From Minisyncoccota bacterium (GTDB taxonomy: Bacteria > Patescibacteriota > Minisyncoccia > Phycocordibacterales > Phycocordibacteraceae): a stretch of DNA of 64,000 bases. The DNA is taken from the NCBI GenBank assembly GCA_035627655.1, contig DASPLI010000001.1:195355-259354 (forward strand), in the 5' to 3' direction. The position numbers and the translations under genes are program-made. This document shows, piece by piece, positions 4,517-54,336 of the stretch. The number at the start of each line of letters is the position of its first letter. Within the stretch, counting starts at the first letter, position 1. The notes below the pieces were generated by a model. The model saw only the letters and a program-made list of their open reading frames with translations. It ran no database searches and was not told where the DNA came from.

Positions 4517-6346
4517 CTACGCCTCCTTCTCCATCTCAAGACGCTGTCGTTCGCGTTTTATGGAAAGTAGCTGAGACGGATCTGAAGTGATGATTTGGTC
4601 CTCCGTGTAGGAAGCAACAATCTTAATCGCCACGTGCTTGAGGCCGGCAAAGAAGAGTCCCTCCCCTACCCCTGACTCAAGCAGAAGGAACTTCTCCTCA
4701 TCCGTGAGGTTGAAGATATCCATCAGGAGGTCGATGGTTGTCGGTGACTGTTTCAGAAGAAGCTGAATGGAGGAGTTCGTGAGAATTGGCTTTCCGTACG
4801 GACTGCGCAAGAAGTCTTCCACGTCCTGGGTAATCGTCGAGACGCCGAGATAGTACTTACGACCACGCTTTGCAAGGCTGTAGAGGAAGGAAGCGGTGTC
4901 TTCCGATTTCATCATCCACCACGCCTCGTCGATCACGAGTAGGCGCTTCTTGAGCTCATGTCGTACCGCGTTCCAAATGAAGTGCGTGACGATGTACATG
5001 GCGACTGGCTTCAACTCGTCTTCCATGTCGCGAACGGAGAACACGACGAACTGCTTCGTAATATCGACGTTCGTTGGCTGGTTGAGGAAGCCAGACCACG
5101 TACCCTTCGTATACTTGGACAAACGCTGAATGAGTGAAGCCGATCCTTCCATGCCGGAAAGCACGTTTTCAAAGTCTGAAAGCAGCGGAGCTTCGATGCC
5201 GGTGAAGTCCGCGTCCCCGGTAATGTCTTTGAGCGCATACGTCTCCGTAATGGCGCGGTCGACAATGGCATCTTCTTCAGGCGTCAGTCCGCCAAGCATG
5301 ATGCGGAAGAGGCCAACGAGGTTGATGATGTTTGAGCGGAGCACGTCGGACGGGTTTTCGTCCTCTTTTACCGGCGGCAAGTCAAACGGATTGATATGGT
5401 GCTCGCTTGAAAGCGAGATGTTGAACATACGGCCGCCTGTTGCTTCAGCAAGATATTCGTATTCACGCTCCGGGTCGATCACGATGACATCCGTCTCAAA
5501 CATCAAGGAGCGGAGAATCTCCAGCTTCACCGCATACGATTTACCGGAACCGGACTTTGCGAAGACGACGGAGTTGTAGTTTTCAAGCGAGAAGCGGTCA
5601 AACAGAATCAGAGATGCGTTGTGGCGGTTGATGCCGTAGAGAATGCCGCGGTCAGACGTGAGGTCGAACGAGACAAACGGGAAGATAGACGACAGCGGCG
5701 ACGAGTTGAGCTTGTTGTGGACTGCAAGCTCATCAAGTGCAAGCGGGAGTGTCGAGCGGAAGCCCTGCTCCTGCTGGAAGATTGCTGGTTTTGTAGAAAT
5801 GAGACGGGAGTCGAGAATGCCGCGCACATCCGCCTCAATCTTATCGAGCTCCTCCTTGGACGAGCCGTACATGGTGAGATAGAGGCCAACTTCAAAGAGC
5901 CGTTCTTGAGCCTGCTGCAGCTGGTCGCGAAGTGCTTCAAGGTCCTGATACGCGGTATCAAGCATGGGGTCGCGCACCAAACCTTTCTCTGTTCGTTCGC
6001 TGATCTGGCTCTGCACCTCGGCGACCTTCTTCTGAAAGTTGCGCAATGCCTCCCCTGTCTCAAGCGGATGAATGAAAATGCCGATATCGAAGACGCGCGC
6101 AAGGTTGATGATTGGCGTAAACCAGCTGTCCGTCAGATAGCGTGGATAGGAGATGGTGTAGAACGTGCGGGAAAGCTTTTCTCCAAGCTCGAGCTCGCGG
6201 GCAGATACCTTGAGAGCTGCTGGCGCGATGGTGTCGGCAAGCGTAAGGGTACCCTGGTTATAAATGTCCTGCGGTAATGCCGGAGCAATGACGGTTGAGG
6301 CCGTCGCCGGAGCTTCTTTCTTCTTGAAAAAGTCGAGTAGAGCCAT
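4517..6346 (-). CDS. virB4: VirB4/TrbE/CagE-family type IV secretion ATPase
   Basis: 609 aa. Walker A VFAKSGSGKSYAVK, Walker B LLVIDEAWWMM. N-terminus (FYTISYPRYLTDSWFTPI...DIGIFIHP) resembles Gram-positive PrgJ/TraE-type VirB4. Confidence 0.85.
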   Translation of the reverse strand: MALLDFFKKKEAPATASTVIAPALPQDIYNQGTLTLADTIAPAALKVSARELELGEKLSRTFYTISYPRYLTDSWFTPIINLARVFDIGIFIHPLETGEALRNFQKKVAEVQSQISERTEKGLVRDPMLDTAYQDLEALRDQLQQAQERLFEVGLYLTMYGSSKEELDKIEADVRGILDSRLISTKPAIFQQEQGFRSTLPLALDELAVHNKLNSSPLSSIFPFVSFDLTSDRGILYGINRHNASLILFDRFSLENYNSVVFAKSGSGKSYAVKLEILRSLMFETDVIVIDPEREYEYLAEATGGRMFNISLSSEHHINPFDLPPVKEDENPSDVLRSNIINLVGLFRIMLGGLTPEEDAIVDRAITETYALKDITGDADFTGIEAPLLSDFENVLSGMEGSASLIQRLSKYTKGTWSGFLNQPTNVDITKQFVVFSVRDMEDELKPVAMYIVTHFIWNAVRHELKKRLLVIDEAWWMMKSEDTASFLYSLAKRGRKYYLGVSTITQDVEDFLRSPYGKPILTNSSIQLLLKQSPTTIDLLMDIFNLTDEEKFLLLESGVGEGLFFAGLKHVAIKIVASYTEDQIITSDPSQLLSIKRERQRLEMEKEA

Positions 6347-7447: not shown

Positions 7448-8281
7448 CTATTCGATAGGTTCGCGATATGGATCGCTTGCGTATGGCTTTGGAGTGGGCG
7501 GTGTCGGTTTTGGTGGCTGCGGAGTAGGAGGTTTTGGAGCAGAAACAGGCGGTGTTGGCGTTGGGGCCGAAGGAGGAACAGGTTTTGGCACCTCTGGCTT
7601 TTGCGGTGGCGGTACTGGTGGCGTTGGTGGAGTGTCTATGACTGGTTTTGGAGCTGGAGCGGCTTGTGGCTGCTGTTTGGGCGGTATAGGAGCGGTCGGC
7701 TTAGGTGTCTGAGTACTAACAGTAGAAGATGTTTGGGGTTTGGGCACGGGAGAAGCTGGAGGCTTTGCAGAAGAGGTTGCTGACGCAGGTTTTGGAGCCG
7801 CTAGCTTCTGAGGTGTTACCTCATGTTTGGGAAGCAGGTGATCTGGAGGAATAGGTCTAGGAGTCGTAGAAGCAGGCTTCGGTTGTGATTTAGGAGGTTG
7901 CGGAACTGGCGGAGCAGTTTTCGCCGGCGCAGTCTCTACTTCCCGCACCTCTTCTTTGGGAAGGGGAACTTCATACCCGTACACTACGGGTTTTTTGTAC
8001 GCTTCCAAGACATCTTTGGTTATGCGGTCTGCAATAGAAGCGGCCGTTGATTCCGGGAGAAAGGTTTTTAGCTCAGAAAGAACCGTGTTGGGCTGGATAA
8101 GACCAAGCAGGGCTGCGTACGCAACAGCGTTGAGCTGACTTCCGACTTGTGGGGTCAGGGTGTGGTCGAGCTCGATCGCAAGCACCGCATCTGTAAACAG
8201 GCCATCATCTAGAAACCGCTTTACTTCTACGGAAGCATGATCACGAGCTTTCTGGAGCTGTTCATTGGGAATCTGCATCAT
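7448..8281 (-). CDS. hypothetical protein with Pro-rich low-complexity C-terminus
   Basis: Globular N-terminal region of about 110 aa, then about 160 aa of P/T/A/K-rich sequence (PKPxxPxPP repeats). Confidence 0.5.
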   Translation of the reverse strand: MMQIPNEQLQKARDHASVEVKRFLDDGLFTDAVLAIELDHTLTPQVGSQLNAVAYAALLGLIQPNTVLSELKTFLPESTAASIADRITKDVLEAYKKPVVYGYEVPLPKEEVREVETAPAKTAPPVPQPPKSQPKPASTTPRPIPPDHLLPKHEVTPQKLAAPKPASATSSAKPPASPVPKPQTSSTVSTQTPKPTAPIPPKQQPQAAPAPKPVIDTPPTPPVPPPQKPEVPKPVPPSAPTPTPPVSAPKPPTPQPPKPTPPTPKPYASDPYREPIE

Positions 8282-41708: not shown

Positions 41709-42320
41709 TTAGCGTACAAACGACTTGCGTCGCAGCAGCTGTCGCAGTTTATCCGGCTCGCCCGTCCCCCGCTTCCGCTTGGTCGGCTGGTAGCAGAGAC
41801 GTGCGTGATCCGCGCAGTAAGGACCATGCGTCTGGCCGCGTCCACAAAACGCGAAGTCCTTCTGGTCAGGATCACCGATTGGAAACTTGCACATCGATTC
41901 GTTGATCGTCAGCACGCTTGCCGGCGCCCCGTCTTCAAACCGCACTGGTTCGAGTTCTGGAATCACGGCTGGTGTTGGCGGTCGTTCGATGTAGGTTCGT
42001 GGCTGCACGCGACGCGCGGCGACAGCTGAACGGTTTGCGCGCGGACGCGCTGGCCGTACGATGTTGTTCGCCTTGAACTTCGCGAGCACTTCGGCACCGT
42101 CTGCGTATCGATCTTTGATTACTTTCGATAGGCGCGGACGATGCAGGGCTCCAAGGACCACGCTTCGCGTGATTTCCTTGAAGCGGTCGCTTGAGGGACG
42201 AAACTTTCGGTCGAGCTGTCGTGCGACAGCGCTCGCGGATGAACATGCTTTCGCCGCTTGATAGAAAGCTTCGATGCAGTCATCTCGTTTGGCGTCCCAG
42301 CGAGGTAGCACTGTTTCCAT
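41709..42320 (-). CDS. GcrA-like cell-cycle-regulator-family protein
   Basis: N-terminal W-x-x-x-R…-S-A-S-x-V/I-A segment (WDAKRDDCIEAFYQAAKACSSASAVARQL…GALHR) and C-terminal CKFPIGDPDQKDFAFCGRGQTHGPYCADHARLCYQP, matching the conserved GcrA C-terminal Cys motif. Confidence 0.55.
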   Translation of the reverse strand: METVLPRWDAKRDDCIEAFYQAAKACSSASAVARQLDRKFRPSSDRFKEITRSVVLGALHRPRLSKVIKDRYADGAEVLAKFKANNIVRPARPRANRSAVAARRVQPRTYIERPPTPAVIPELEPVRFEDGAPASVLTINESMCKFPIGDPDQKDFAFCGRGQTHGPYCADHARLCYQPTKRKRGTGEPDKLRQLLRRKSFVR

Positions 42321-42534
42321 ATCTACTCCCCTATGTAATGTGCTCCTACCCATAGATATACTCCTACACCACGCTCTCGTCTATCGGGATAATACTTCGC
42401 TACGCATACAAAATAAGTCAATGTGCTATACTCCGCCCATCGGCAACGACTGCACGTCCTGTAACGACTGAACTGCCGCCGATATTCCTTCGTCATACGT
42501 GCGCTTAATAACCGGTGCGTTGTAGTGAACAAGT

Positions 42535-44064
42535 ATGTCTATAAAGCTTGTACTCACCCTTCTAGCCTTCTCCGGTCTTGCCGGGATCGCGCTTGGCTAC
42601 GTCCTTCGTATGCTGATCGCGCTCTCGCAGCGAGGCTCCCTGGAAATTGAGGTGAAGCAAAAGATGCTTGAGGCCCGCGAGAAGGCGGCGCACATCGAGC
42701 GAGAAGCGGAGGCCCGCGCTGACGCCATTGAGGCGGAGCGCCTCGGCCCCCTGCTTGAACGTGAAGAACGTCTTGAAAAGAACGAAGATCGCCTCGCGAA
42801 ACGAGAAGAATTTCTCGATGAGCGCGAGCGCAATCTTGCCGACGAATCCGAGCGCGTAAAGACGCGTGAAAACGAAGCCGCAAACCTGAAGAAGGAGGCG
42901 GAGAACGTCCTTAAGGAGCGTCGGGCGGAGTTGGTGCGCATCTCAGGGCTTTCAGAGGTAGAAGCGGAGAAGCGTCTTATTAAAGAGGTGGAGCACGCAA
43001 CCGAAGAAGCGGTTCTTGCCCGCATGCAGAAACTGGAGGCGCATGGTACTGCGCAGCTTGAGGAAAAAGCACGCTCCATTCTCCTCTCTATTATTCATCG
43101 CATGGGCAATGCGGTGAACGCAGAGGTGATGACCCTCTCGATCCAGATTCCGTCTGAAGAGATCAAAGGCAAGATCATCGGCAAGGAGGGTCGCAACATC
43201 AAAGCGTTTGAGCGAGCGACCGGCGTCGACGTCATCATCGATGACGCGCCGGACAAGATTACACTTTCGTCGTTTGATCCCTTGCGTCGTCATGTTGCCA
43301 AACTCGCGCTTGAGCGCCTGATCACTGACGGGCGCATCCAGCCTGCAAAGATCGAGGAAGTTGTCGAGAAGGCGCGCGAAGAGATCAATGATCTCGTGAA
43401 GCAAAAGGGCGAGGCAGCCTGTTACGAGGTTGGGCTCGTCGGTCTTGATCCGAAGTTGATCGCACTCCTTGGCCGACTCTACTTCCGCACGAGCTACGGC
43501 CAGAATGTTCTGCAGCACTCCATCGAGATGGCGCATCTTGCCGGCATGCTTGCGGCAGAGCTTGGTGCTGACGTGCAGATAGCAAAAGCAGGCGCCCTCC
43601 TCCATGACATCGGCAAGGCCGTTGATCATGAGGTGACGGGTACGCACGTGGATATTGGCCGACGACTCCTTGAGAAGTTCGGCATCGACAAGCGCGTTAT
43701 CCAAGCTATGCAGTCGCATCATGAGGAGTATCCGTACGAAACACCGGAATCGGTCATCGTGCAGGTGGCAGACGCCATCTCCGGCGGACGACCCGGTGCG
43801 CGTCGCGATACGGTAGAGCGCTACCTCGAACGACTGGGAGATCTTGAGCGTGTCGCCAAGAGCTTTGATGGCGTTGAGAAGGTCTATGCCATTCAAGCCG
43901 GCCGCGAGATTCGCATCTTCGTGAATCCGGGCAAGGTATCGGATCTTGCCATGCATAAACTTGCGCGCGATATAGCTAAGCGCGTGCAGGAAGAGCTGAA
44001 GTATCCAGGAGAAATTAAAGTGAACGTCATACGCGAGAACCGCGTCGTGGAGTTTGCCAGGTAG
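42535..44064 (+). CDS. rny: ribonuclease Y
   Basis: N-terminal TM, long coiled coil, KH domain (IIGKEGRNIKAFE), HD domain (HSIEMAHLAG…LLHDIGK). Confidence 0.85.
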   Translation: MSIKLVLTLLAFSGLAGIALGYVLRMLIALSQRGSLEIEVKQKMLEAREKAAHIEREAEARADAIEAERLGPLLEREERLEKNEDRLAKREEFLDERERNLADESERVKTRENEAANLKKEAENVLKERRAELVRISGLSEVEAEKRLIKEVEHATEEAVLARMQKLEAHGTAQLEEKARSILLSIIHRMGNAVNAEVMTLSIQIPSEEIKGKIIGKEGRNIKAFERATGVDVIIDDAPDKITLSSFDPLRRHVAKLALERLITDGRIQPAKIEEVVEKAREEINDLVKQKGEAACYEVGLVGLDPKLIALLGRLYFRTSYGQNVLQHSIEMAHLAGMLAAELGADVQIAKAGALLHDIGKAVDHEVTGTHVDIGRRLLEKFGIDKRVIQAMQSHHEEYPYETPESVIVQVADAISGGRPGARRDTVERYLERLGDLERVAKSFDGVEKVYAIQAGREIRIFVNPGKVSDLAMHKLARDIAKRVQEELKYPGEIKVNVIRENRVVEFAR

Positions 44065-44066
44065 CG

Positions 44067-44097
44067 AAAAGGCCCGGAACGAATCCCGGGCCTTTTA
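44067..44097 (+). terminator. rho-independent terminator
   Basis: aaaaGGCCCGGaacgaatCCCGGGCCtttt. Confidence 0.7.
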
Positions 44098-44099
44098 CG

Positions 44100-44429
44100 T
44101 CAGCGAATGACGTCAGCGCGCAACCCAATAAAGAAATCCTGCACAAACGTTTGTCCGGTAGAGATGTAAAACGCGATCCACATCGGCACGAGAATGCCGA
44201 CGCTGATCACGAGCGGGAAAATCCCTACCAGTGCAGCAAGTTCAAGGTTTCTGTTACTGAGTATGGCAAGACCCACAACCATGGCGATGCCGCACAGGGC
44301 GGATACGACCAGAATGGCGGGCAGTGTGAGGAACGTTCCTGCGAGGATGCCGAAGAGTGCCGGCACACCCCACATCAGAAGTGGGTACATGTAGTCCTGA
44401 TCTCCTTCTTGAAGCCGTAGCGCATACAA
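44100..44429 (-). CDS. hypothetical small membrane protein
   Basis: Three TM helices in 109 aa. Confidence 0.35.
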   Translation of the reverse strand: MYALRLQEGDQDYMYPLLMWGVPALFGILAGTFLTLPAILVVSALCGIAMVVGLAILSNRNLELAALVGIFPLVISVGILVPMWIAFYISTGQTFVQDFFIGLRADVIR

Positions 44430-44837
44430 ACACAGAAGATGTGTACTAGCAAGTATTCATTGACCCTCATCAATTTTCGTGGTACAGAAAGTCACTTTGC
44501 CAATGGTGGCAGGGTTGTTCTTTGAAAGAGGAACACAGCAATGAGCAGTAAGAGAGCTCAGGCCCCGCGGAATCTCAAGGTCACCGCGTCGGTCGTGGCT
44601 ATCGTGGGTGGGGAGCGTCCTTTCGCTGTCACCTACCCCTCGAAGCGGTCCGTCGGCGGAAAGCTTCGTGAGCATACAAGCATTACCTTCTCGCTCTCCA
44701 GCTGGCGCGGCAAAGACCGTCCCCAGTGCGGACAGATGGTGGTGCTTGAGGACATACTCTTGTTTAAGAGAGGATGGCGCGCCCGCGTGGCGTACCCCAT
44801 CTCCCTCTCGAACACTCAGCAGTAGCAGGAGGACGGT

Positions 44838-45578
44838 ATGAAACCGTTTCAAGGCTCTACGCAAGAATGCTTCGCGCATTTTGCCGAGCAGCTTGCAAGT
44901 GACTACGAATACCATCGGAAACGAAAGGTGTTCGCCGCTACCGTGCACGTTACCGACGGCACCGTCCAGCGTTGGTTTTCCCAAAACGGGTTACCCATGG
45001 GCGAGGCACTCGTGCGTGTCCGGTACTACCTCGACTTCCTCGGCTACGCTGTTGCTGAGGTACAAGAACTGCCAGAGGCGATCCGCACCGTGGGTCACCT
45101 GATTACGTTCGACGTCCTTTCGGTTGCTGATGTGGCCGGTTCTACCGGTTACGAAGGCGTGCCGAAAAACAATGTCGACCAGGTGATCGCCGTTTTGTGC
45201 GGTCGTCGCGGCGTCTCGGAAGAAAAGTTCGCGCTTTACAGCGAGCTTGCTCGCGTCAACCGGAAACGGCTGACGCAACGGCAGCAGGCAGTTGAAAAAG
45301 TCGTGAGCTTCGAACAGGGACACTGCCCTACGGAACCGGAGTCATTTCCGACCGCGAGGCCTGAGAGCGATTCGCACCGCAAGGTGATCATCGAATCGTT
45401 CGTTCACTCGGTGGAAGCAATTCTGCCGCTCGCCGAAGACGTGTTGTCTGATGGCTTCACCGCCGCGGACCGCGCGAAGGTGCGAGATTTGGTTGGGAGC
45501 GGCATTTCCCGTCTCTCCAACCTGCTCACCCAATTGACGAGCGAGGGTGCGAGAAACACCCTCAAGAAACAGCAGTAG
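44838..45578 (+). CDS. hypothetical protein with two XRE-like HTH-like segments
   Basis: Segments ATVHVTDGTVQRWFSQNGLPMGEALVRVRYYL and DVLSVADVAGSTGYEGVPKNNVDQVIAVL fit an HTH_3-like pattern. The next gene starts 11 nt after its stop. Confidence 0.45.
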   Translation: MKPFQGSTQECFAHFAEQLASDYEYHRKRKVFAATVHVTDGTVQRWFSQNGLPMGEALVRVRYYLDFLGYAVAEVQELPEAIRTVGHLITFDVLSVADVAGSTGYEGVPKNNVDQVIAVLCGRRGVSEEKFALYSELARVNRKRLTQRQQAVEKVVSFEQGHCPTEPESFPTARPESDSHRKVIIESFVHSVEAILPLAEDVLSDGFTAADRAKVRDLVGSGISRLSNLLTQLTSEGARNTLKKQQ

Positions 45579-45591
45579 AAAGGTGTCCGCT

Positions 45592-47304
45592 ATGCCTAGC
45601 GCACAATCCGCGGTTCGTACGAGCCGCAGCGAGGTGGGCTTCCATCACGGAAAGACCCTCCTCAAAGTCGCCAACACGTACCCGTCCCTCTTTGAGGCGG
45701 TGCTCGAAGCCGTGCAAAACGCGATCGATTCTGAAGCCACGAAAATTGGCATCATTATCAATCGCAAGACGCGGTCGATCAGCATCATCGACAACGGGAA
45801 CGGTGTGACGCGCGAGCAACTCGACGAAGCGCTCGCCAGCGTCGGCAGTACACTCAAGCAGCGCGACAAGCTTGGCCAATTTGGCTATGGCCTCATTTCC
45901 TCCTTAGGGAAGTGTGAGTCCATGTCGTTCACCTCGTGCCCCGCAGGGGGCGACGAGTACCTTGAGTGGACGTTTGACACCGCGAAGATCGCCAACCAAG
46001 TTCGTGCGATCAAAATTCCGGTTGCGAAACGTAATTTCGTCTACCGCCCGAACCGTGACGGCCCACCCCTTCCACGGGGTTGGCATGCCACGGAATGGCG
46101 GACGCGGGTCTCGATCAACAATTACGTGACGGACCGCAAGATCTCCGAAATCCGGAGCGCCGATGCCCTCAAGGAGGCCATCGTCGAGAAGTTCGGCATC
46201 CCAATGCGGCGGAACGATGTGTCCGTCAGCGTCGACATCACGAACGAGAACGGCTCGCGGGAGACAGCGGTCGGGAAGGCAAAGCTCTTCTCCGGCAAGA
46301 AGCTCCCTGAAGTCGTCATCTCGGATAAGGATGCTGGTAACACCATCTTCCGGCTCTATCTCGCCAAGCCCGGCCGTCAAGGCAAGGTCTTGGTCGGGGT
46401 GGTCGGCGACGACTACCGCTTCGCGTTCGGCGTCTTCGCTAAGGAGGCGTCGGAACTTCTCTCGACGAACATCATCGAACTGTTCGTTAAGGAAGGCATC
46501 TTCGAGGGCGAGATTCTCACGACCAATGGGAAGCTCCACGACTCGAGGAAGAAGCTTGAGCAGAACGACGCCTATGTGGGCTTCTGCGCCACGATTGAGG
46601 AATGGTTCCTCAAGCATGGCAAGAAGCACCTCAAGGAGGTCAAGGACGAACGGCAGGGCCAGCGCATTCAGGACCTGTCGCTCAAGAGCCTTGAGAACGT
46701 GCAGAGCGTGCTCTCGGACGACGCGTTCGACCATCTTCGTAAGGGGACGATCGACACCTTCCGGTACGGCACTGTCGGCGCTGGGCATACCAATCCCGAA
46801 GATCGCAAGATCGTCGGGACACAGGAAAACCCGTCACTGTCGACCGTCGCTAGCGCGCGCAAGCGCGGTGAAGGCGGCGAAAGCCACGGGAACGAGCCTC
46901 CGGAGCGTGAACACGCCGGCCATATTCCCTTCACTGCTGCTGGCCCTCGCGGTCAGCAGCGGCGGGTGGTAAAGGGCGGCTCGCGCGGGCTTCAGTTCGA
47001 TCACACGGCAATGCGGTCCGATGGACCGCTCGCCGTGCTCGATGCTGGTAACGGCATTATCTTCTTCAACGTTGAGCACCCGGCCTGGGTAGCGGCGTCT
47101 GAAGCGGGTGACCGTGAGCTCATGCAGCTGCAGGAAGTCGGCGCCCTCGTTTCCCTCGTGCGTCACACGATGCCCGAGGAATACCATGGGTATCTCGACC
47201 TCTACCTGACCGACCTTCTTGGTCCGCTGTCGTTCCTCTTGCGCAACTCCCCCTCCTTCAGCTCCTCGGCTCGCACGAAGGCGAGCAAGGAAAAGAAGGA
47301 GTAG
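45592..47304 (+). CDS. Hsp90/MORC-like GHKL (HATPase_c_3-type) ATPase
   Basis: Bergerat-fold motifs: N-box LEAVQNAIDS, G1 box IIDNGNGV, G2 box LGQFGYGLISSLG. The roughly 400-aa C-terminal region has no recognisable domain. Confidence 0.6.
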   Translation: MPSAQSAVRTSRSEVGFHHGKTLLKVANTYPSLFEAVLEAVQNAIDSEATKIGIIINRKTRSISIIDNGNGVTREQLDEALASVGSTLKQRDKLGQFGYGLISSLGKCESMSFTSCPAGGDEYLEWTFDTAKIANQVRAIKIPVAKRNFVYRPNRDGPPLPRGWHATEWRTRVSINNYVTDRKISEIRSADALKEAIVEKFGIPMRRNDVSVSVDITNENGSRETAVGKAKLFSGKKLPEVVISDKDAGNTIFRLYLAKPGRQGKVLVGVVGDDYRFAFGVFAKEASELLSTNIIELFVKEGIFEGEILTTNGKLHDSRKKLEQNDAYVGFCATIEEWFLKHGKKHLKEVKDERQGQRIQDLSLKSLENVQSVLSDDAFDHLRKGTIDTFRYGTVGAGHTNPEDRKIVGTQENPSLSTVASARKRGEGGESHGNEPPEREHAGHIPFTAAGPRGQQRRVVKGGSRGLQFDHTAMRSDGPLAVLDAGNGIIFFNVEHPAWVAASEAGDRELMQLQEVGALVSLVRHTMPEEYHGYLDLYLTDLLGPLSFLLRNSPSFSSSARTKASKEKKE

Positions 47305-47313
47305 GTAAACAAA

Positions 47314-47357
47314 GGCCCCCTGCTTCGCCATTTGGCGGAGCAGGGGGTTTGCTTTTA
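47314..47357. terminator. bidirectional rho-independent terminator
   Basis: CCCCCTGCTTCGCCatttGGCGGAGCAGGGGGtttgctttt. Confidence 0.65.
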
Positions 47358-47657
47358 CGTGGAGCGGGCCTCTTGTTGCGCCTCTCCCCGCATGATCGCG
47401 CGGGTTCCGATGAGCGGAATCTTTGGATCGATGTTCTCGAAGAACCGCTCGATCGGCACTTCAAGCGCATGGGCGATCAGGTAGAGGTACGACGCGCTGA
47501 CCGTGCGGCCGCCGCTTTCAAAGGAACGAATGTCCTTAGGCGGAACTTTGATGCGGTCGCCGAGTTCAAACTCGGAGACGCCTTTTTCATGGCGAATGCG
47601 ACGGATCGCTTTCGCAAAGTGCGAGTTGAGCGGATGATTTCCAAGACGTTCTGGCAT
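47355..47657 (-). CDS. XRE-family HTH transcriptional regulator
   Basis: IRRIRHEKGVSEFELGDRIKVPPKDIRSFESGGRTVSASYLYLIAHALEVPIERFF is a typical HTH_3. Confidence 0.7.
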   Translation of the reverse strand: MPERLGNHPLNSHFAKAIRRIRHEKGVSEFELGDRIKVPPKDIRSFESGGRTVSASYLYLIAHALEVPIERFFENIDPKIPLIGTRAIMRGEAQQEARST

Positions 47658-47843
47658 TCTTGTAGGTCCTTTCTCCTACTCCCTGGCGTTGACCCTACCC
47701 CCGTTTGTGTTCAAAAGCAAGGTTTTGACACTATCCACCTTGATTGGCAAGCCCTCTTGCGGCCCAGGGCCCATTTTCTATACTTTTTCTATACCCCGGC
47801 CCCATTGCTGCCGCGGGACATATAAGCCAATTCACCAGAATTC

Positions 47844-48170: not shown

Positions 48171-48250
48171 ATGTATGCTTCAGACGGAGCGGTGTACTGT
48201 CCGCCTCACGCCCTGTGGAGGGCGTGTTCTATTCCCAACGGAGGACGCCC

Positions 48251-48751
48251 ATGACGCGTATCTTCGTCGCGATTTTCCTCTTTCTGTGCTGTATCGCCCT
48301 GCCGGATCAGGTATCTGCCCGCCAGTACGCTGGCTATACGGCAGACGGAACGGTTCGCGTCACAGTACGGGAGGTTGAACCTCGAGGACGAATCCAAGTA
48401 CAGGATGATGCGCCGTTCTTTACGCTGCTCTTCCTGTTTATGTGTCTCGGTCTACTGATTGCACTCATCCTTTCGTTTGACGACGAGGGTGAGAGCGGAG
48501 AAGAAGCAACGGCACAGCCGGCTTCCCCGCCACCACCTCCAGCACCCGCACCGCCGCCGATACCGCCCGCCGATCCTTTGCCACCACTGCCAGTCGTGGT
48601 TGAGGATACGGAAGCGCGTCGTCGCTTGCGTGTTAGTCGGGATGCGCTTCGGCGCGCCGACGAGCGCGCGGAAGAAATACAGCAGGAGGCATATCGAGCC
48701 CTACGAGACCTCGACGAATCACCACCAGTACCTTCAAGACGGCGCACCTAG
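48251..48751 (+). CDS. hypothetical bitopic membrane protein with Pro-rich cytoplasmic tail
   Basis: RBS ACGGAGGA. Signal (IFVAIFLFLCCIALPDQVSA), one TM (LLFLFMCLGLLIALIL), PPPPPAPAPPPIPP stretch, charged helical end. Confidence 0.45.
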   Translation: MTRIFVAIFLFLCCIALPDQVSARQYAGYTADGTVRVTVREVEPRGRIQVQDDAPFFTLLFLFMCLGLLIALILSFDDEGESGEEATAQPASPPPPPAPAPPPIPPADPLPPLPVVVEDTEARRRLRVSRDALRRADERAEEIQQEAYRALRDLDESPPVPSRRRT

Positions 48752-48996
48752 CGCCGTCTCTTTTTTGTGCTAGGATCCCTGACAGGCCGCTTCATCCAGG
48801 CTTCAGGGTCTGGATCGTAGCGTAGGGCTTCCACCGGTCTCCCCCAAGGATCGACCGGTTGATCTTTCGCGAGTTTCGCATTGTCTCCCTCCTGTATACG
48901 TGTGTGCGGCGTCGGATATCGCGCCTGCGCAGAACTGTTATGTGCAGGCGTCATAGCCGCTGTCATGAAGACACGGTTGATTGTAGGAGAAGGACA

Positions 48997-49452
48997 ATGA
49001 ACCTTACCCCGGATCGACGCCCTGAACGGGGCGACGGCCAAGGTGGCTCGCGTTCACCGCAGCCGCCCAACACCAGGCAACCCCAGCGCGCCGACGACGA
49101 CGGCATGTCGTTTGAAGACGCCTGGAACGCCATGAACGAAGCCTGGAAAGGCATGCTGCGCGAAGCTGGCCAGCTTCGCACCGAGGCTCAAGAAGCCAAG
49201 GCGGCGGCCAATCAAGAAAAAGCTCGCGCCGACCGGCTGCAAGAAGAGTTGCGCGTTTCCGACAGCGAAAAGAAGCGGCTCTTTGATGACAACACTCGCC
49301 TGCAAGGTCTCCTTGACCAGGCGCGCAACGTCATCAAGAAGTTTGCTGAAAAGCAAGACGAAGCGCGTGCTCAGATCCGTGATGACTATCGCGCTATCAC
49401 GGAGCCGCCGCCGCCTGAACGGACCGGCCGCGGTGCTGAACGGCACCAGTAA
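48997..49452 (+). CDS. hypothetical coiled-coil protein
   Basis: RBS AGGAGAAGGA. 151 aa with a heptad-like charged central region. Confidence 0.45.
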   Translation: MNLTPDRRPERGDGQGGSRSPQPPNTRQPQRADDDGMSFEDAWNAMNEAWKGMLREAGQLRTEAQEAKAAANQEKARADRLQEELRVSDSEKKRLFDDNTRLQGLLDQARNVIKKFAEKQDEARAQIRDDYRAITEPPPPERTGRGAERHQ

Positions 49453-49468
49453 GATCAGAAGCCCTTTC

Positions 49469-49504
49469 AGAGGCGACGCCCCAGCGTCGCCTCTTTCTTT
49501 TTCC
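49469..49504 (+). terminator. rho-independent terminator
   Basis: AGAGGCGACGCcccaGCGTCGCCTCTttctttttcc. Confidence 0.7.
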
Positions 49505-49525
49505 TGACGGGTGTATCATGGGAGC

Positions 49526-50221
49526 ATGACTTTTGCTGAAATGCCGCCGATTCCGGGCAAGAAGTTTGCCCCAGGAAAGACTGGTCAGCTCGAACGCCTG
49601 GATGCCAAGCGTCGTCTGACAAAGGCAAAGCGATGGGTAAAGTCTGGTTGGGAGAACGTGGTAACGCGCATTCCCAACAAAGCTGATATTTACGCCTACT
49701 CGTTTCGAACGCCCGATGAGGGGTTTCGTGCTCGAGAGATTTACTACATTCATCGCATCTTGAAAGTGCTCTTCCCGTCGCACTTCCCGAGAATTCGCGC
49801 AGCGATGGAGCATCGTAACAATTCAGAGACGCCCGGCGGCACGGTGCGACAGGAAGTAAAAATAAAGGAGGACCCACTTGCGGACAGTCGCAAAGCAAGT
49901 TTCGTGTACTGGTTTATGCAGAACTTTGTTACTAAAACCACAGAGGGAGATTTCCAAGAGGTGCGCCAGGCGCTCCAGGACATGGGCATCAAGAGCGGTA
50001 TTGATTTCAACCCGGCTAATTTTGCGGCTGATGAAGAGGGGCATGAACAATATCTCGATACGGCGCCTGGGCTCGCAGAGCCGTTTATCAATCAGCATCC
50101 GCGGATTATTGAATACATGTGGGCGCGCGGCTATGCAGGGGATGATGTTCGCAAGGTAGAGAAAGCGCTCAAACGCCTTGATACGCTTGTTGCCCGCCGT
50201 AAGAAGCGGCTCACTCGCTAG
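49526..50221 (+). CDS. hypothetical protein
   Basis: 232-aa globular-looking ORF. Start ambiguous between 49511 and 49526. No SD. Confidence 0.4.
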   Translation: MTFAEMPPIPGKKFAPGKTGQLERLDAKRRLTKAKRWVKSGWENVVTRIPNKADIYAYSFRTPDEGFRAREIYYIHRILKVLFPSHFPRIRAAMEHRNNSETPGGTVRQEVKIKEDPLADSRKASFVYWFMQNFVTKTTEGDFQEVRQALQDMGIKSGIDFNPANFAADEEGHEQYLDTAPGLAEPFINQHPRIIEYMWARGYAGDDVRKVEKALKRLDTLVARRKKRLTR

Positions 50222-50248
50222 TTCAAAGTTTGCTCCACAGGCCGTTAG

Positions 50249-50276
50249 TTGACTATATAGACTACTGTTGTATTAT
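50249..50276 (+). promoter_or_regulatory. sigma70-like promoter (TTGACT, 16 bp spacer, TATTAT)
   Basis: ttgactATATAGACTACTGTTGtattat lies 35 nt upstream of RBS GGAGGAGG and the ATG at 50312. Confidence 0.45.
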
Positions 50277-50311
50277 CATAGGCAGACTTGATCTTAGACA
50301 GGAGGAGGATC

Positions 50312-51457
50312 ATGCCTGAGGCGACGCGGGTGGAAACATCTGCAGCGACATGCGAAATTCGGTGTTCTCGTGATCGATTTTCTGGTGCCCGTGGGGAGTT
50401 CGCACGAATAGCTAGTTTCGTGGAAGAACTTCTGACGGAAGCCGGGCTATCCGGGAATTTCCAATGCGTGCCGCATAAGCCAGTTCGCGGCGGACATGCG
50501 AACAAGGGCCAAGGATTCCGTATCACGCGAGTGGACGGGTCTGATGGGCTGATGTGTATCATCCAGCTCGGCTCCAATGATTCTGCATGGGAATGCAAAC
50601 TCTTGCTTCCGGCGACGTTCTTGCCTGAAAAGGTGAAGACGCAGCTGGAAGAGGCGCTTCGGCGCCGAAATGCTCGGCCTGTGAAGGCGGTCCCGCCTCC
50701 TCCCCCGGAGGAGCCCGACCCGCCACCACCAGCGCCGGCCGTATGCGATGTTATTGCGGATCTCGAGCGCGTCGCGCTCCTGATTGCAGGACAGTTCCCC
50801 GAACGGAAGAGTTGCTCTCCGTACGAGGTGATCGCCGATCTGTTCATTGATGAATATCAATGGGCATCGGCGGAAGCGCACCAAGCGATACTGGCTTTGG
50901 TCAACCGGCGGCACTTTAAGCTTGCAGGCAGCACTGCGGATCAGCGTTACATCAGCATTCTGGACGGCGCGCTGTGCGACCACTTGAAGGTCCTCAGCGT
51001 GCTCAAGGAAGCTGAAACGAAGACTCCCGCTCCCGTCGTCACTGCTCCCGTCGTCTCCGACAAGCAGCGATTGCGGACAGAAGCCTCGCAGATGTACGTC
51101 GGCCAGCCTCTGGACGACGAACCTCGCCCCCGACCACGGCTTGTTCGCTCGGAGGCGCCTGCCCCGACGCAACCAGCACCGCCTGCGGCTCCCACCGGAA
51201 TCGCGGCCCAGCTTGCCGATCTTGAGCAGAAGTCACTGGTATTCGAGGAAGCGCAGCACCAGCTGCGCCAAGCCGAACCCGCGACCGCTGCGCTTGAGGA
51301 GCGCTGGGAACGTGCTCAGGAAGAGATCGCTGCGATTACGCGCGAGCGCGAACGTTTGAGCGCGGAGTGTGCCGATGCGAACCGCATCGTTGCAGATCCG
51401 AACTACGCTCAGGCGGCCGAAAAGCTTGCTCGCATTCGCGAGATCATTTCATCCTGA
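50312..51457 (+). CDS. hypothetical multidomain protein (Cys-containing N-domain, poly-Pro linkers, C-terminal coiled coil)
   Basis: Strong RBS GGAGGAGG. 381 aa. PPPPPEEPDPPPPAP and PAPTQPAPPAAP linkers. Confidence 0.5.
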   Translation: MPEATRVETSAATCEIRCSRDRFSGARGEFARIASFVEELLTEAGLSGNFQCVPHKPVRGGHANKGQGFRITRVDGSDGLMCIIQLGSNDSAWECKLLLPATFLPEKVKTQLEEALRRRNARPVKAVPPPPPEEPDPPPPAPAVCDVIADLERVALLIAGQFPERKSCSPYEVIADLFIDEYQWASAEAHQAILALVNRRHFKLAGSTADQRYISILDGALCDHLKVLSVLKEAETKTPAPVVTAPVVSDKQRLRTEASQMYVGQPLDDEPRPRPRLVRSEAPAPTQPAPPAAPTGIAAQLADLEQKSLVFEEAQHQLRQAEPATAALEERWERAQEEIAAITRERERLSAECADANRIVADPNYAQAAEKLARIREIISS

Positions 51458-53961: not shown

Positions 53962-54336
53962 CTACTTCTTACCGAGGCTTTGCAGGAGCTCCAGCAGTCT
54001 CTTCACGCTTACGCGTGACAACTTGCGCGAGAGCACCAGGAGTTCGATCTCTTCGGCAGTTTCAGGCACGACTTCATCAGTCGCACCCGTCTTTCCTTGG
54101 TTACCCAGTCCTTCGTAGAACGAGGCAACGGACTTATCAAGCGCATTGGCTATGTCGAGGAGTCGACTGGCCGCGATGCGATTGATGCCCTTCTCGTACT
54201 TCTGTACCTGCTGAAACGTCACGCCGAGTAGCTCGGCGAGCCGTTCCTGAGACATACCGATTTCAAGCCGCCGAGTTCGGACACGCTGCCCGATCTTGCG
54301 GTCTACTATGGTTGCCCCACGTTCGTCTTTTGACAA
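53962..54336 (-). CDS. XRE-family HTH transcriptional regulator
   Basis: IGQRVRTRRLEIGMSQERLAELLGVTFQQVQKYEKGINRIAASRLLDIANAL. Confidence 0.7.
   Translation of the reverse strand: MSKDERGATIVDRKIGQRVRTRRLEIGMSQERLAELLGVTFQQVQKYEKGINRIAASRLLDIANALDKSVASFYEGLGNQGKTGATDEVVPETAEEIELLVLSRKLSRVSVKRLLELLQSLGKK

Follow-up and report, generated by a model that had tools for sequence, protein, structure and literature searches.

Between rny and hup on contig DASPLI010000001.1 of a Minisyncoccota bacterium (GenBank assembly GCA_035627655.1) lies an insert of some 3.65 kb. It carries an operon whose obligate core is a protein with a probable helix-turn-helix (HTH) unit of the XRE type and a GHKL-S5 ATPase resembling MutL and MORC. 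The stretch analysed, here called the window, is the 64,000 nucleotides (nt) at positions 195,355 to 259,354 of the forward strand of that contig, and coordinates below are positions in it unless they follow the designation of another locus; Lnnn denotes other fetched loci. That the module is an accessory, laterally mobile and fast-diverging operon is firmly supported. What is it for? The reading favoured, with a probability of about one half, is that a horizontally acquired insert brought in a clamp-ATPase/HTH operon with a conflict function, whether anti-phage, anti-mobile-element or of the addiction type; the single most likely role, for which the odds are also roughly even, is anti-phage or anti-mobile-element. 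The behaviour that leads to a conflict system is fourfold: residence in an insertion hotspot, presence or absence among close relatives, fast divergence and the existence of a phage-borne copy.

The two core genes, on the + strand at 44838–45578 (246 amino acids (aa), the partner) and 45592–47304 (570 aa, the ATPase) and separated by 13 nt, are just as an earlier preliminary description of this DNA had them, and the ATG at 45592 fits the N-termini of homologues of the ATPase. It regarded them as a two-gene module. That has had to be revised, since homologues of a 94-aa protein encoded immediately upstream, at 44541–44825, occur at the same position in related loci and make the operon here one of three genes.

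What do relatives have at this place? With RNase Y 57–86% identical to that of the window as the means of retrieval, 80 metagenome loci were fetched, 68 of them informative. hup lies within 400 nt of rny in 57 of the 68, the two are separated by 0.7–2.8 kb of unrelated cargo in nine, and hup is not nearby in the other two. The module is in none of the 68, and so it is not the syntenic housekeeping operon, shared by all relatives, that the preliminary description had named as the outcome to look out for. The rny-hup slot is an insertion hotspot. Among its contents in other relatives are a HicA toxin paired with a UPF0150 (HicB-type) protein, each exceeding the Pfam threshold (L052, 3474–3885, − strand), a sub-threshold Phd/YefM-like protein beside a 78-aa open reading frame (ORF; L091, 10539–11026, − strand), a membrane protein in which DUF1538 is joined to a cytidylate-kinase-like domain (L084, 7439–9631) and an HD-domain protein (L043, 2118–2828). 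Relatives with an empty site run from the rny terminator straight into the hup promoter that is found here at 47757–47784, from which the insert is taken to extend from 44098 to about 47750.

Three other genomes, L002, L023 and L001 (the last cut at the contig end), have the module in the same slot. The flanking NusA, ClpP, RNase Y and HU proteins of these genomes are 72–88% identical to those of the window. For the ATPase, identity to that of the window is 56% in L002, within a range of 56–63% for L002 and L001, and 34% in L023, and for the partner it is 37% in L002 and 27% in L023 (same-slot range 27–42%). The lower identity of the module than of its flanks implies either that it diverges much faster than its neighbours or that it was replaced by distant variants.

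The pairing of the two core genes was followed in 31 chromosomal loci: the window, the metagenome places found via the ATPase (four, counted as three distinct because L003 and L004 are near-duplicates) and 27 GTDB species genomes. In every one of the 31 a homologue of the partner is encoded immediately upstream of the ATPase, as it is in L117, which came from a separate lookup; the co-occurrence across genomes that had been proposed as a check is borne out. In L002, L003 and L117 the end of the partner gene and the start of the ATPase gene share 4 nt, and pairwise identities among partners correlate with those among ATPases (r = 0.77, 435 pairs). That partner and ATPase are a genuine conserved functional unit, and a co-evolving one, is supported. 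Elsewhere the module adjoins GroEL, Lon, MnmA, YchF, alanyl-tRNA synthetase or ribosomal genes, and when neighbours within 5 kb were compared all-against-all no other gene family was near the module in more than five of the 31 loci, a winged HTH 'pre' gene being the one to reach five.

How large is the family, and how wide is its range? When 1.84 billion cluster representatives (50% identity) were searched exhaustively with HMMER, about 430 clusters matched the ATPase at E <= 1e-30, and the best 150 are all full-length, at 445–632 aa and mostly 530–630 aa. A word-indexed search under-reported both proteins, with 25 matches for the ATPase and one for the partner (ten with a profile); local hidden Markov model searches found the partner in all of the 31 loci. 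Named members are from Parcubacteria, Paceibacterota, Minisyncoccia, Sungiibacteriota and generic 'Saccharibacteria' metagenome-assembled genomes. A few records are nominally of Gammaproteobacteria or Acidobacteriaceae, going by their titles, and the range is apparently restricted to Patescibacteria.

There is also a counterpart outside the chromosomal set. A divergent pair with a full-length ATPase (about 30% identity) is present on the IMG/VR contig L034 (7905–10455), and the same element is represented by L118 (6981–9486) and L119 (3119–5624). The ATPase there, of 608–623 aa, is followed by a partner-like gene (228 aa), the reverse of the order in chromosomes, and nearly all of the neighbours are orphans. 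Additional features of L118 are a metallophosphoesterase, a faint I-HmuI/NUMOD-like match and a weak match to a major head protein.

The ATPase is 100% identical to an NCBI protein named 'ATP-binding protein [Candidatus Paceibacterota bacterium]'. Its head had been called unmistakably Bergerat-fold, and rightly: residues 32–138 match Pfam HATPase_c_3 at 57.9 bits (cut-off 25), and the motifs EAVQNAIDS, IIDNGNGV and GQFGYGLISSLG keep the set ExxxNxxD, DxGxG and GxxGxG, which is intact across an alignment of 167 representatives of the family. In that alignment E39, N43, G69, G71, G100 and R319 are 100% conserved, and D46, D67 (98%), G95 and G98 are 95–99% conserved. Conservation of the catalytic residues, and of R319 with them, points to an active enzyme under purifying selection.

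An AlphaFold2 model of the ATPase, for which 25 homologues served as input (mean predicted local distance difference test, pLDDT, 80.8), has a GHKL domain at about 1–180, a second alpha/beta domain at about 190–310, a long helix at 326–385, a disordered linker at about 395–445 and a compact C-terminal domain at about 446–570. Residues 190–310 or so are an S5-type transducer with the invariant basic R319, and it is this succession of S5 after GHKL, with a conserved basic residue in S5, that characterises the GHL subgroup, to which the ATPase modules of MutL, MORC, Hsp90 and type II topoisomerases belong. Some 400 aa beyond the head had earlier been left without a nameable domain; the transducer now accounts for one part of them, and the C-terminal domain does indeed match nothing. 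In the tabulated comparisons of the ATPase the values are 16.2 for the N-terminal domain (NTD) of E. coli MutL, 15.7 for B. subtilis MutL, 15.5 for MORC2, 15.0 for MORC3, 14.9 for SMCHD1 and 14.4 for PMS1. As modelled, the protein is nearer to the GHKL plus S5 arrangement of MutL-NTD, MORC and SMCHD1 than to Hsp90, so that of the designation 'Hsp90/MORC-like' the MORC side can be kept, in the company of MutL and SMCHD1, and Hsp90 is less close. Profile searches with the C-terminal 255 residues found no PDB sequence and no Pfam family, and the conserved polar residues of this part are H444, R457, D484, N493 and H496. An HNH/beta-beta-alpha-Me reading of the D484...N493..H496 block was considered and dropped because the general-base histidine that should close the first strand is absent, position 471 being H, Y or F.

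Does any known system already include such a protein? It is far under the curated cut-offs for MutL, HtpG, topoisomerase VI-B, MzaB (NCBIfam, 25.4 bits against a cut-off of 850) and BbrUII. To the N-terminal module of MutL, PMS and MLH, its sequence identity is only 16–18%; with TIGR00585 it reaches 32.9 bits (cut-off 180) and with other MutL models 20–28 bits. Pfam detects no MutL_C or DNA_mis_repair domain in it, there is no MutS/MutH context here, and its gene is accessory whereas MutL is universal. From MORC and paraMORC it differs in that its obligate partner is an XRE-HTH protein and its range apparently Patescibacteria only, and also in a detail of sequence, as the MORC motif GhXhhpXXRhl (PMC2292703) is not matched: on a pattern check limited to columns 296–325, the residue eight before R319 is E, S or T, not G, and a conserved glycine, G306, is 13 before it.

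Among defence proteins VcSduA, TmtA and MzaB of the MZA system are alike in having an N-terminal GHKL ATPase used against phage. In its published model VcSduA, of Shedu type I-D, is a dimer of entwined subunits whose middle domain resembles a clamp, and the protein ends in a DUF4263 PD-(D/E)xK nuclease (PMC12137116), the motif and domain of which were not found in the ATPase described here. The matches to TmtA and MzaB span just some 70–100 residues of ATP-binding motifs, and the partner genes differ; TmtA, at 23.7 bits over 73 residues of a 1486-position model, is the sole return of PADLOC for the ATPase. Phage rIIA-like proteins are also large GHKL proteins encoded beside a smaller partner gene, the many fold matches to them in BFVD have E values of 1e-12 to 1e-8, and the phage-borne copy of the present pair runs, in likeness to them, from ATPase to partner. 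The fold matches are confined to the generic GHKL/transducer part, however, with no sequence-level relationship detected.

The partner on its own has no match in Pfam, PHROG, NCBIfam or PADLOC. The profile of 31 members of its family matches PDB 3op9, an HTH structure of the XRE type, with E 4.6e-6 over residues 7–79, and the match to P22 C2 is weak. Of the two degenerate XRE-type units originally proposed for it, the first finds support in this profile match and the second, at residues 80–150 or thereabouts, is no more than suggestive (hhalign P 0.009). Beyond this second helical unit the linker is variable, and the helical domain that ends the protein is conserved, R212, R216 and E236 being invariant in it.

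The 94-aa protein of gene 1 has an invariant GWRA motif. Its homologues are encoded just ahead of the partner gene in 17 loci, are missing in about 13 and are scattered over the ATPase tree, so the gene is an optional head of the operon; here it has the ribosome-binding site (RBS) AGAGGA and ends 12 nt before gene 2. Searches of Pfam, PHROG, NCBIfam, PADLOC and PDB sequences gave no match to it, and no kin is detectable outside this system. In L023 two GWRA small-protein copies are encoded, one before the partner gene (5008–5268) and one after the ATPase gene (7688–7984). An optional fourth gene, the 'pre' gene, which the window does not have, adjoins the module on its upstream or downstream side in other loci (L002, 6371–6865; L003, 9708–10337, in the L003/L004 pair; L009, 7784–8287; L010, 4437–5087; L023, 7875–8447). 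Its product, of about 165–215 aa, is read as having a winged-helix-like N-terminus (a weak HTH_Crp_2 match only) and, after a basic linker, a C-terminal helix that is conserved.

How might such an operon act? In MutL and MORC the N-terminal gate shuts into a clamp upon ATP binding. From what is known of the MutL/MORC/SMCHD1 family, and from the fold match to it, the ATPase would by analogy be an ATP-gated dimeric clamp on DNA. Its dimer would be held via the C-terminal domain, and binding of ATP would close the N-terminal gate into a clamp. The HTH partner, presumably made stoichiometrically with the ATPase given the overlap or tight spacing of their genes, would bind to it and either direct or load the clamp onto particular DNA, or restrain it until there is a trigger. 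The outcome would be interference with foreign or replicating DNA. A more specific proposal, which is tentative and on balance unlikely, is of an immune or silencing system specific to Patescibacteria that does without a classical nuclease: the HTH adaptor might load the clamp on invading DNA to block its replication or expression, or the C-terminal domain with its H444, R457, D484, N493 and H496 might be a new effector, phages carrying a diverged copy as a counter-measure or exclusion device. Nuclease-free silencing of this kind, if true, would be a prokaryotic counterpart of eukaryotic MORC/SMCHD1 silencing.

Several observations weigh against the conflict reading and belong together. The GC content of the island, 57.8%, is near the 55.5% of the window, so composition gives no sign of recent transfer, and occupation of the same slot in at least three related genomes is compatible too with old vertical inheritance and many losses. 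A PADLOC scan of the window found no known defence genes beside the module. A defence-island setting had been suggested; the variable hotspot is there, and with no known defence genes flanking the module it is that hotspot, and nothing besides, from which the suggestion can draw. No nuclease motif had been visible on first inspection of the two proteins, and none in the module proteins is detectable by Pfam or C-terminal profile searches; more widely, no TIR, nuclease, helicase, methylase or similar effector is present in the proteins, or among the conserved neighbours, of the 31 loci. Superfamily II (SFII) helicases, DNA methylases and nucleases of the restriction fold or the HNH kind go with the MORC and paraMORC operons described by Iyer, Abhiman and Aravind (2008, PMC2292703), whereas SFII helicase, nuclease and methylase partners occur in 0 of the 31 module loci. 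The defence models of PADLOC v2.0 and NCBIfam gave no full-length match, those to the ATPase stopping within its first 100 residues or so. The predicted structure of the partner is of low confidence (pLDDT 64.6), and between 44090 and 44560 no operator-like palindrome is convincing besides the hairpins of the operon leader. A sensor/effector role in defence, as first proposed for the pair, is a putative one.

Could the operon be a toxin–antitoxin (TA) or addiction module, in which the HTH protein, an antitoxin that represses its own synthesis, would neutralise a GHKL ATPase able to arrest growth, and which would be kept because its loss is harmful? Type II TA pairs typically have the HTH gene ahead of a larger partner gene and overlapping or close to it, as here, the distribution is sporadic, and what lies between rny and hup in L052 is a bona fide pair of the HicA/HicB type. 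To our knowledge, however, no toxin is like a 570-aa MutL/MORC-like clamp ATPase, and this counts against a TA module. So do the reversed gene order on the virus-classed contigs, the optional extras (the small protein and the winged HTH 'pre' protein), which are ill-suited to a simple two-part module, and the failure of any TA family model to match either core protein. As an account of the operon it is quite unlikely.

The contigs just mentioned give their own alternative, namely that the pair serves a phage or mobile element, by protecting it from host exclusion in the manner of rIIA, by acting in replication or segregation of its DNA or by superinfection exclusion, and that the chromosomal copies are domesticated or remnants. 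A full-length divergent pair is on L034, L118 and L119, the first being from IMG/VR and the second having the weak match to a major head protein; the N-terminus of the ATPase weakly matches phrog_6203, and many of the BFVD fold matches are rIIA-like GHKL proteins. Against this, a full-length homologue is on one of 2.9 million viral contigs as against 27 species genomes. Moreover, the chromosomal inserts are without integrase, att-like repeats or other phage genes, and the BFVD matches are limited to the generic GHKL part, with a TM of about 0.3 that is no better than for topoisomerase or Hsp90. Service to an element is an improbable role for the pair.

A function outside any conflict, with the ATPase as an accessory chromosome-organisation, DNA-repair or gene-silencing factor, an analogue of MutL or MORC brought to DNA by its HTH partner, would sit well with the MutL/MORC/SMCHD1-like fold, with hup, the gene for HU, as its neighbour in four genomes and with purifying selection on all catalytic residues. 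It fits poorly with absence from every informative close relative, with unrelated genomic contexts elsewhere, with divergence far faster than that of the neighbouring housekeeping genes and with scores far under the family cut-offs for MutL and HtpG, and is very unlikely. A signalling pair, in which the GHKL protein would phosphorylate the HTH protein and so switch nearby transcription, is suggested by the juxtaposition of a GHKL protein and a DNA-binding regulator and by the kinase-repressor pair CapK/CapS that controls immune operons (PMC13373217), but the ATPase has an S5 transducer and MutL-like architecture, the partner is without any Pfam match and there is no conserved downstream operon to regulate, which together leave it scarcely credible; the analogy to CapK/CapS itself was rejected because the kinase class is another one and the CapK/CapS substrate has a STAS domain.

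With a conflict function as the preferred reading, features around the core genes can be described. A promoter-like site, TTGACC-17 nt-TACAGA, is at 44460–44488 on the + strand; it was picked out by eye, a stricter scan having overlooked it, and is a putative one. Related loci have TTGAC(A/G/T)-17 nt-TATAAT-like sequences at the same relative spot. Between it and gene 1 is a conserved 5′ leader with two adjoining hairpins, HP1 at 44494–44515 and HP2 at 44516–44535 (44494–44535 in all, + strand). The region 44460–44540 of the window is matched by L001 131–210 and L002 6939–7018, and also in L003, L005 and L023. HP2, GUUCUUU-GAAA-GAGGAAC, pairs the Shine-Dalgarno sequence, and a run of 35 nt that takes in HP2 and the start codon does not differ between the window and L002, although the encoded proteins are 48% identical. 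The stem of HP1 is maintained by differing sequences in L001, L002, L003, L005 and L023, and a terminator scan flagged HP1 as terminator-like. Fold z-scores for the leader, −0.95 to −2.9, are modest, and the RNAalifold consensus is weak and without covariation, since HP1 was misaligned by MAFFT. The leader is probably a translational or attenuation element, HP1 being a possible attenuator, and by sequestering the RBS in structure it probably holds expression low.

The left edge of the insert is a hairpin at 44064–44100, 3′ of rny, that serves as a bidirectional terminator (−23.5 kcal/mol, z −5.4, on the + strand and −23.2 on the −, with flanking A/U runs); in relatives a hairpin and then the hup promoter come at the matching position. 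After the operon, at 47305–47358, is a second bidirectional terminator, common to the ATPase gene and a convergent XRE gene (−38.9 kcal/mol, z −6.9, on +; −31.8, z −6.2, on −; A/U runs flank this one as well). The two strong terminators noted in the preliminary description are thus real and fold on both strands, but the left one does not directly bracket the module: the promoter-like site, the leader and, on the − strand at 44100–44429, a hydrophobic ORF intervene. This last encodes a predicted membrane protein of 109 aa and is lineage-specific cargo of the insert, outside the conserved module; related loci have no homologue of it, and Pfam, NCBIfam and PADLOC gave no match. The convergent gene (47355–47657, −), also inside the insert, does encode an XRE/HTH_3 regulator as had been said, of 100 aa and with 26.6 bits for HTH_3 against a cut-off of 23. 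It is no conserved component: the sole homologue among module loci is in L002 (5963–6304, −), on the upstream side, and it is missing from L001 and L023, which makes it a lineage-specific associate of the core. A second XRE-family gene, of 124 aa at 53962–54336 (−), is kin to it, and its HTH weakly matches the PADLOC regulator models RmrA, C-protein and CapH. The right edge of the insert is the hup promoter, TTGCGG-16 nt-TATACT, on the + strand (47757–47784), and at the empty sites of relatives a TTGCGT...TATACT block precedes hup.

Other departures from the conserved gene row are close by. Between clpP and rny a GcrA-like gene (41709–42353, −; Pfam GcrA E 8e-24) has no homologue in the loci of the 80 relatives, where the clpP-rny distance is about 130–700 nt, and it has the look of a further small insertion into this row. 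On the other side, between hup and rarA (48215–51457), are four ORFs of 178 aa (proline-rich), 197 aa, 236 aa and 389 aa (coiled-coil) with no related-locus homologues and no significant family match; in several relatives rarA follows hup within about 50 nt, so this interval is a second variable slot beside the first.

What, then, is old and what is new? Prokaryotic accessory operons with a GHKL-S5 ATPase from the MutL/MORC radiation are a known kind. New, as far as found, are the orphan C-terminal domain, the obligate XRE-HTH partner, the optional orphan small protein, the lack of nuclease, helicase or methylase context and the apparent restriction to Patescibacteria; no curated family or defence model searched matches the ATPase family beyond the generic GHKL ATP-binding domain. 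Even if the operon should prove to be for addiction or for the service of phage, its limits are clear and its three proteins, which include two orphan families and one orphan domain, are suited to structural work. The candidate phyla radiation (CPR)/Patescibacteria have tiny genomes in which CRISPR-Cas is rare, so that their means of resisting phage are an open question (PMC6509639). If the operon is defensive, the known repertoire would gain a clamp of the MutL/MORC kind that has an HTH adaptor and lacks a recognisable nuclease, and the operon would offer a simple bacterial model of how MORC-type ATPases act on DNA.

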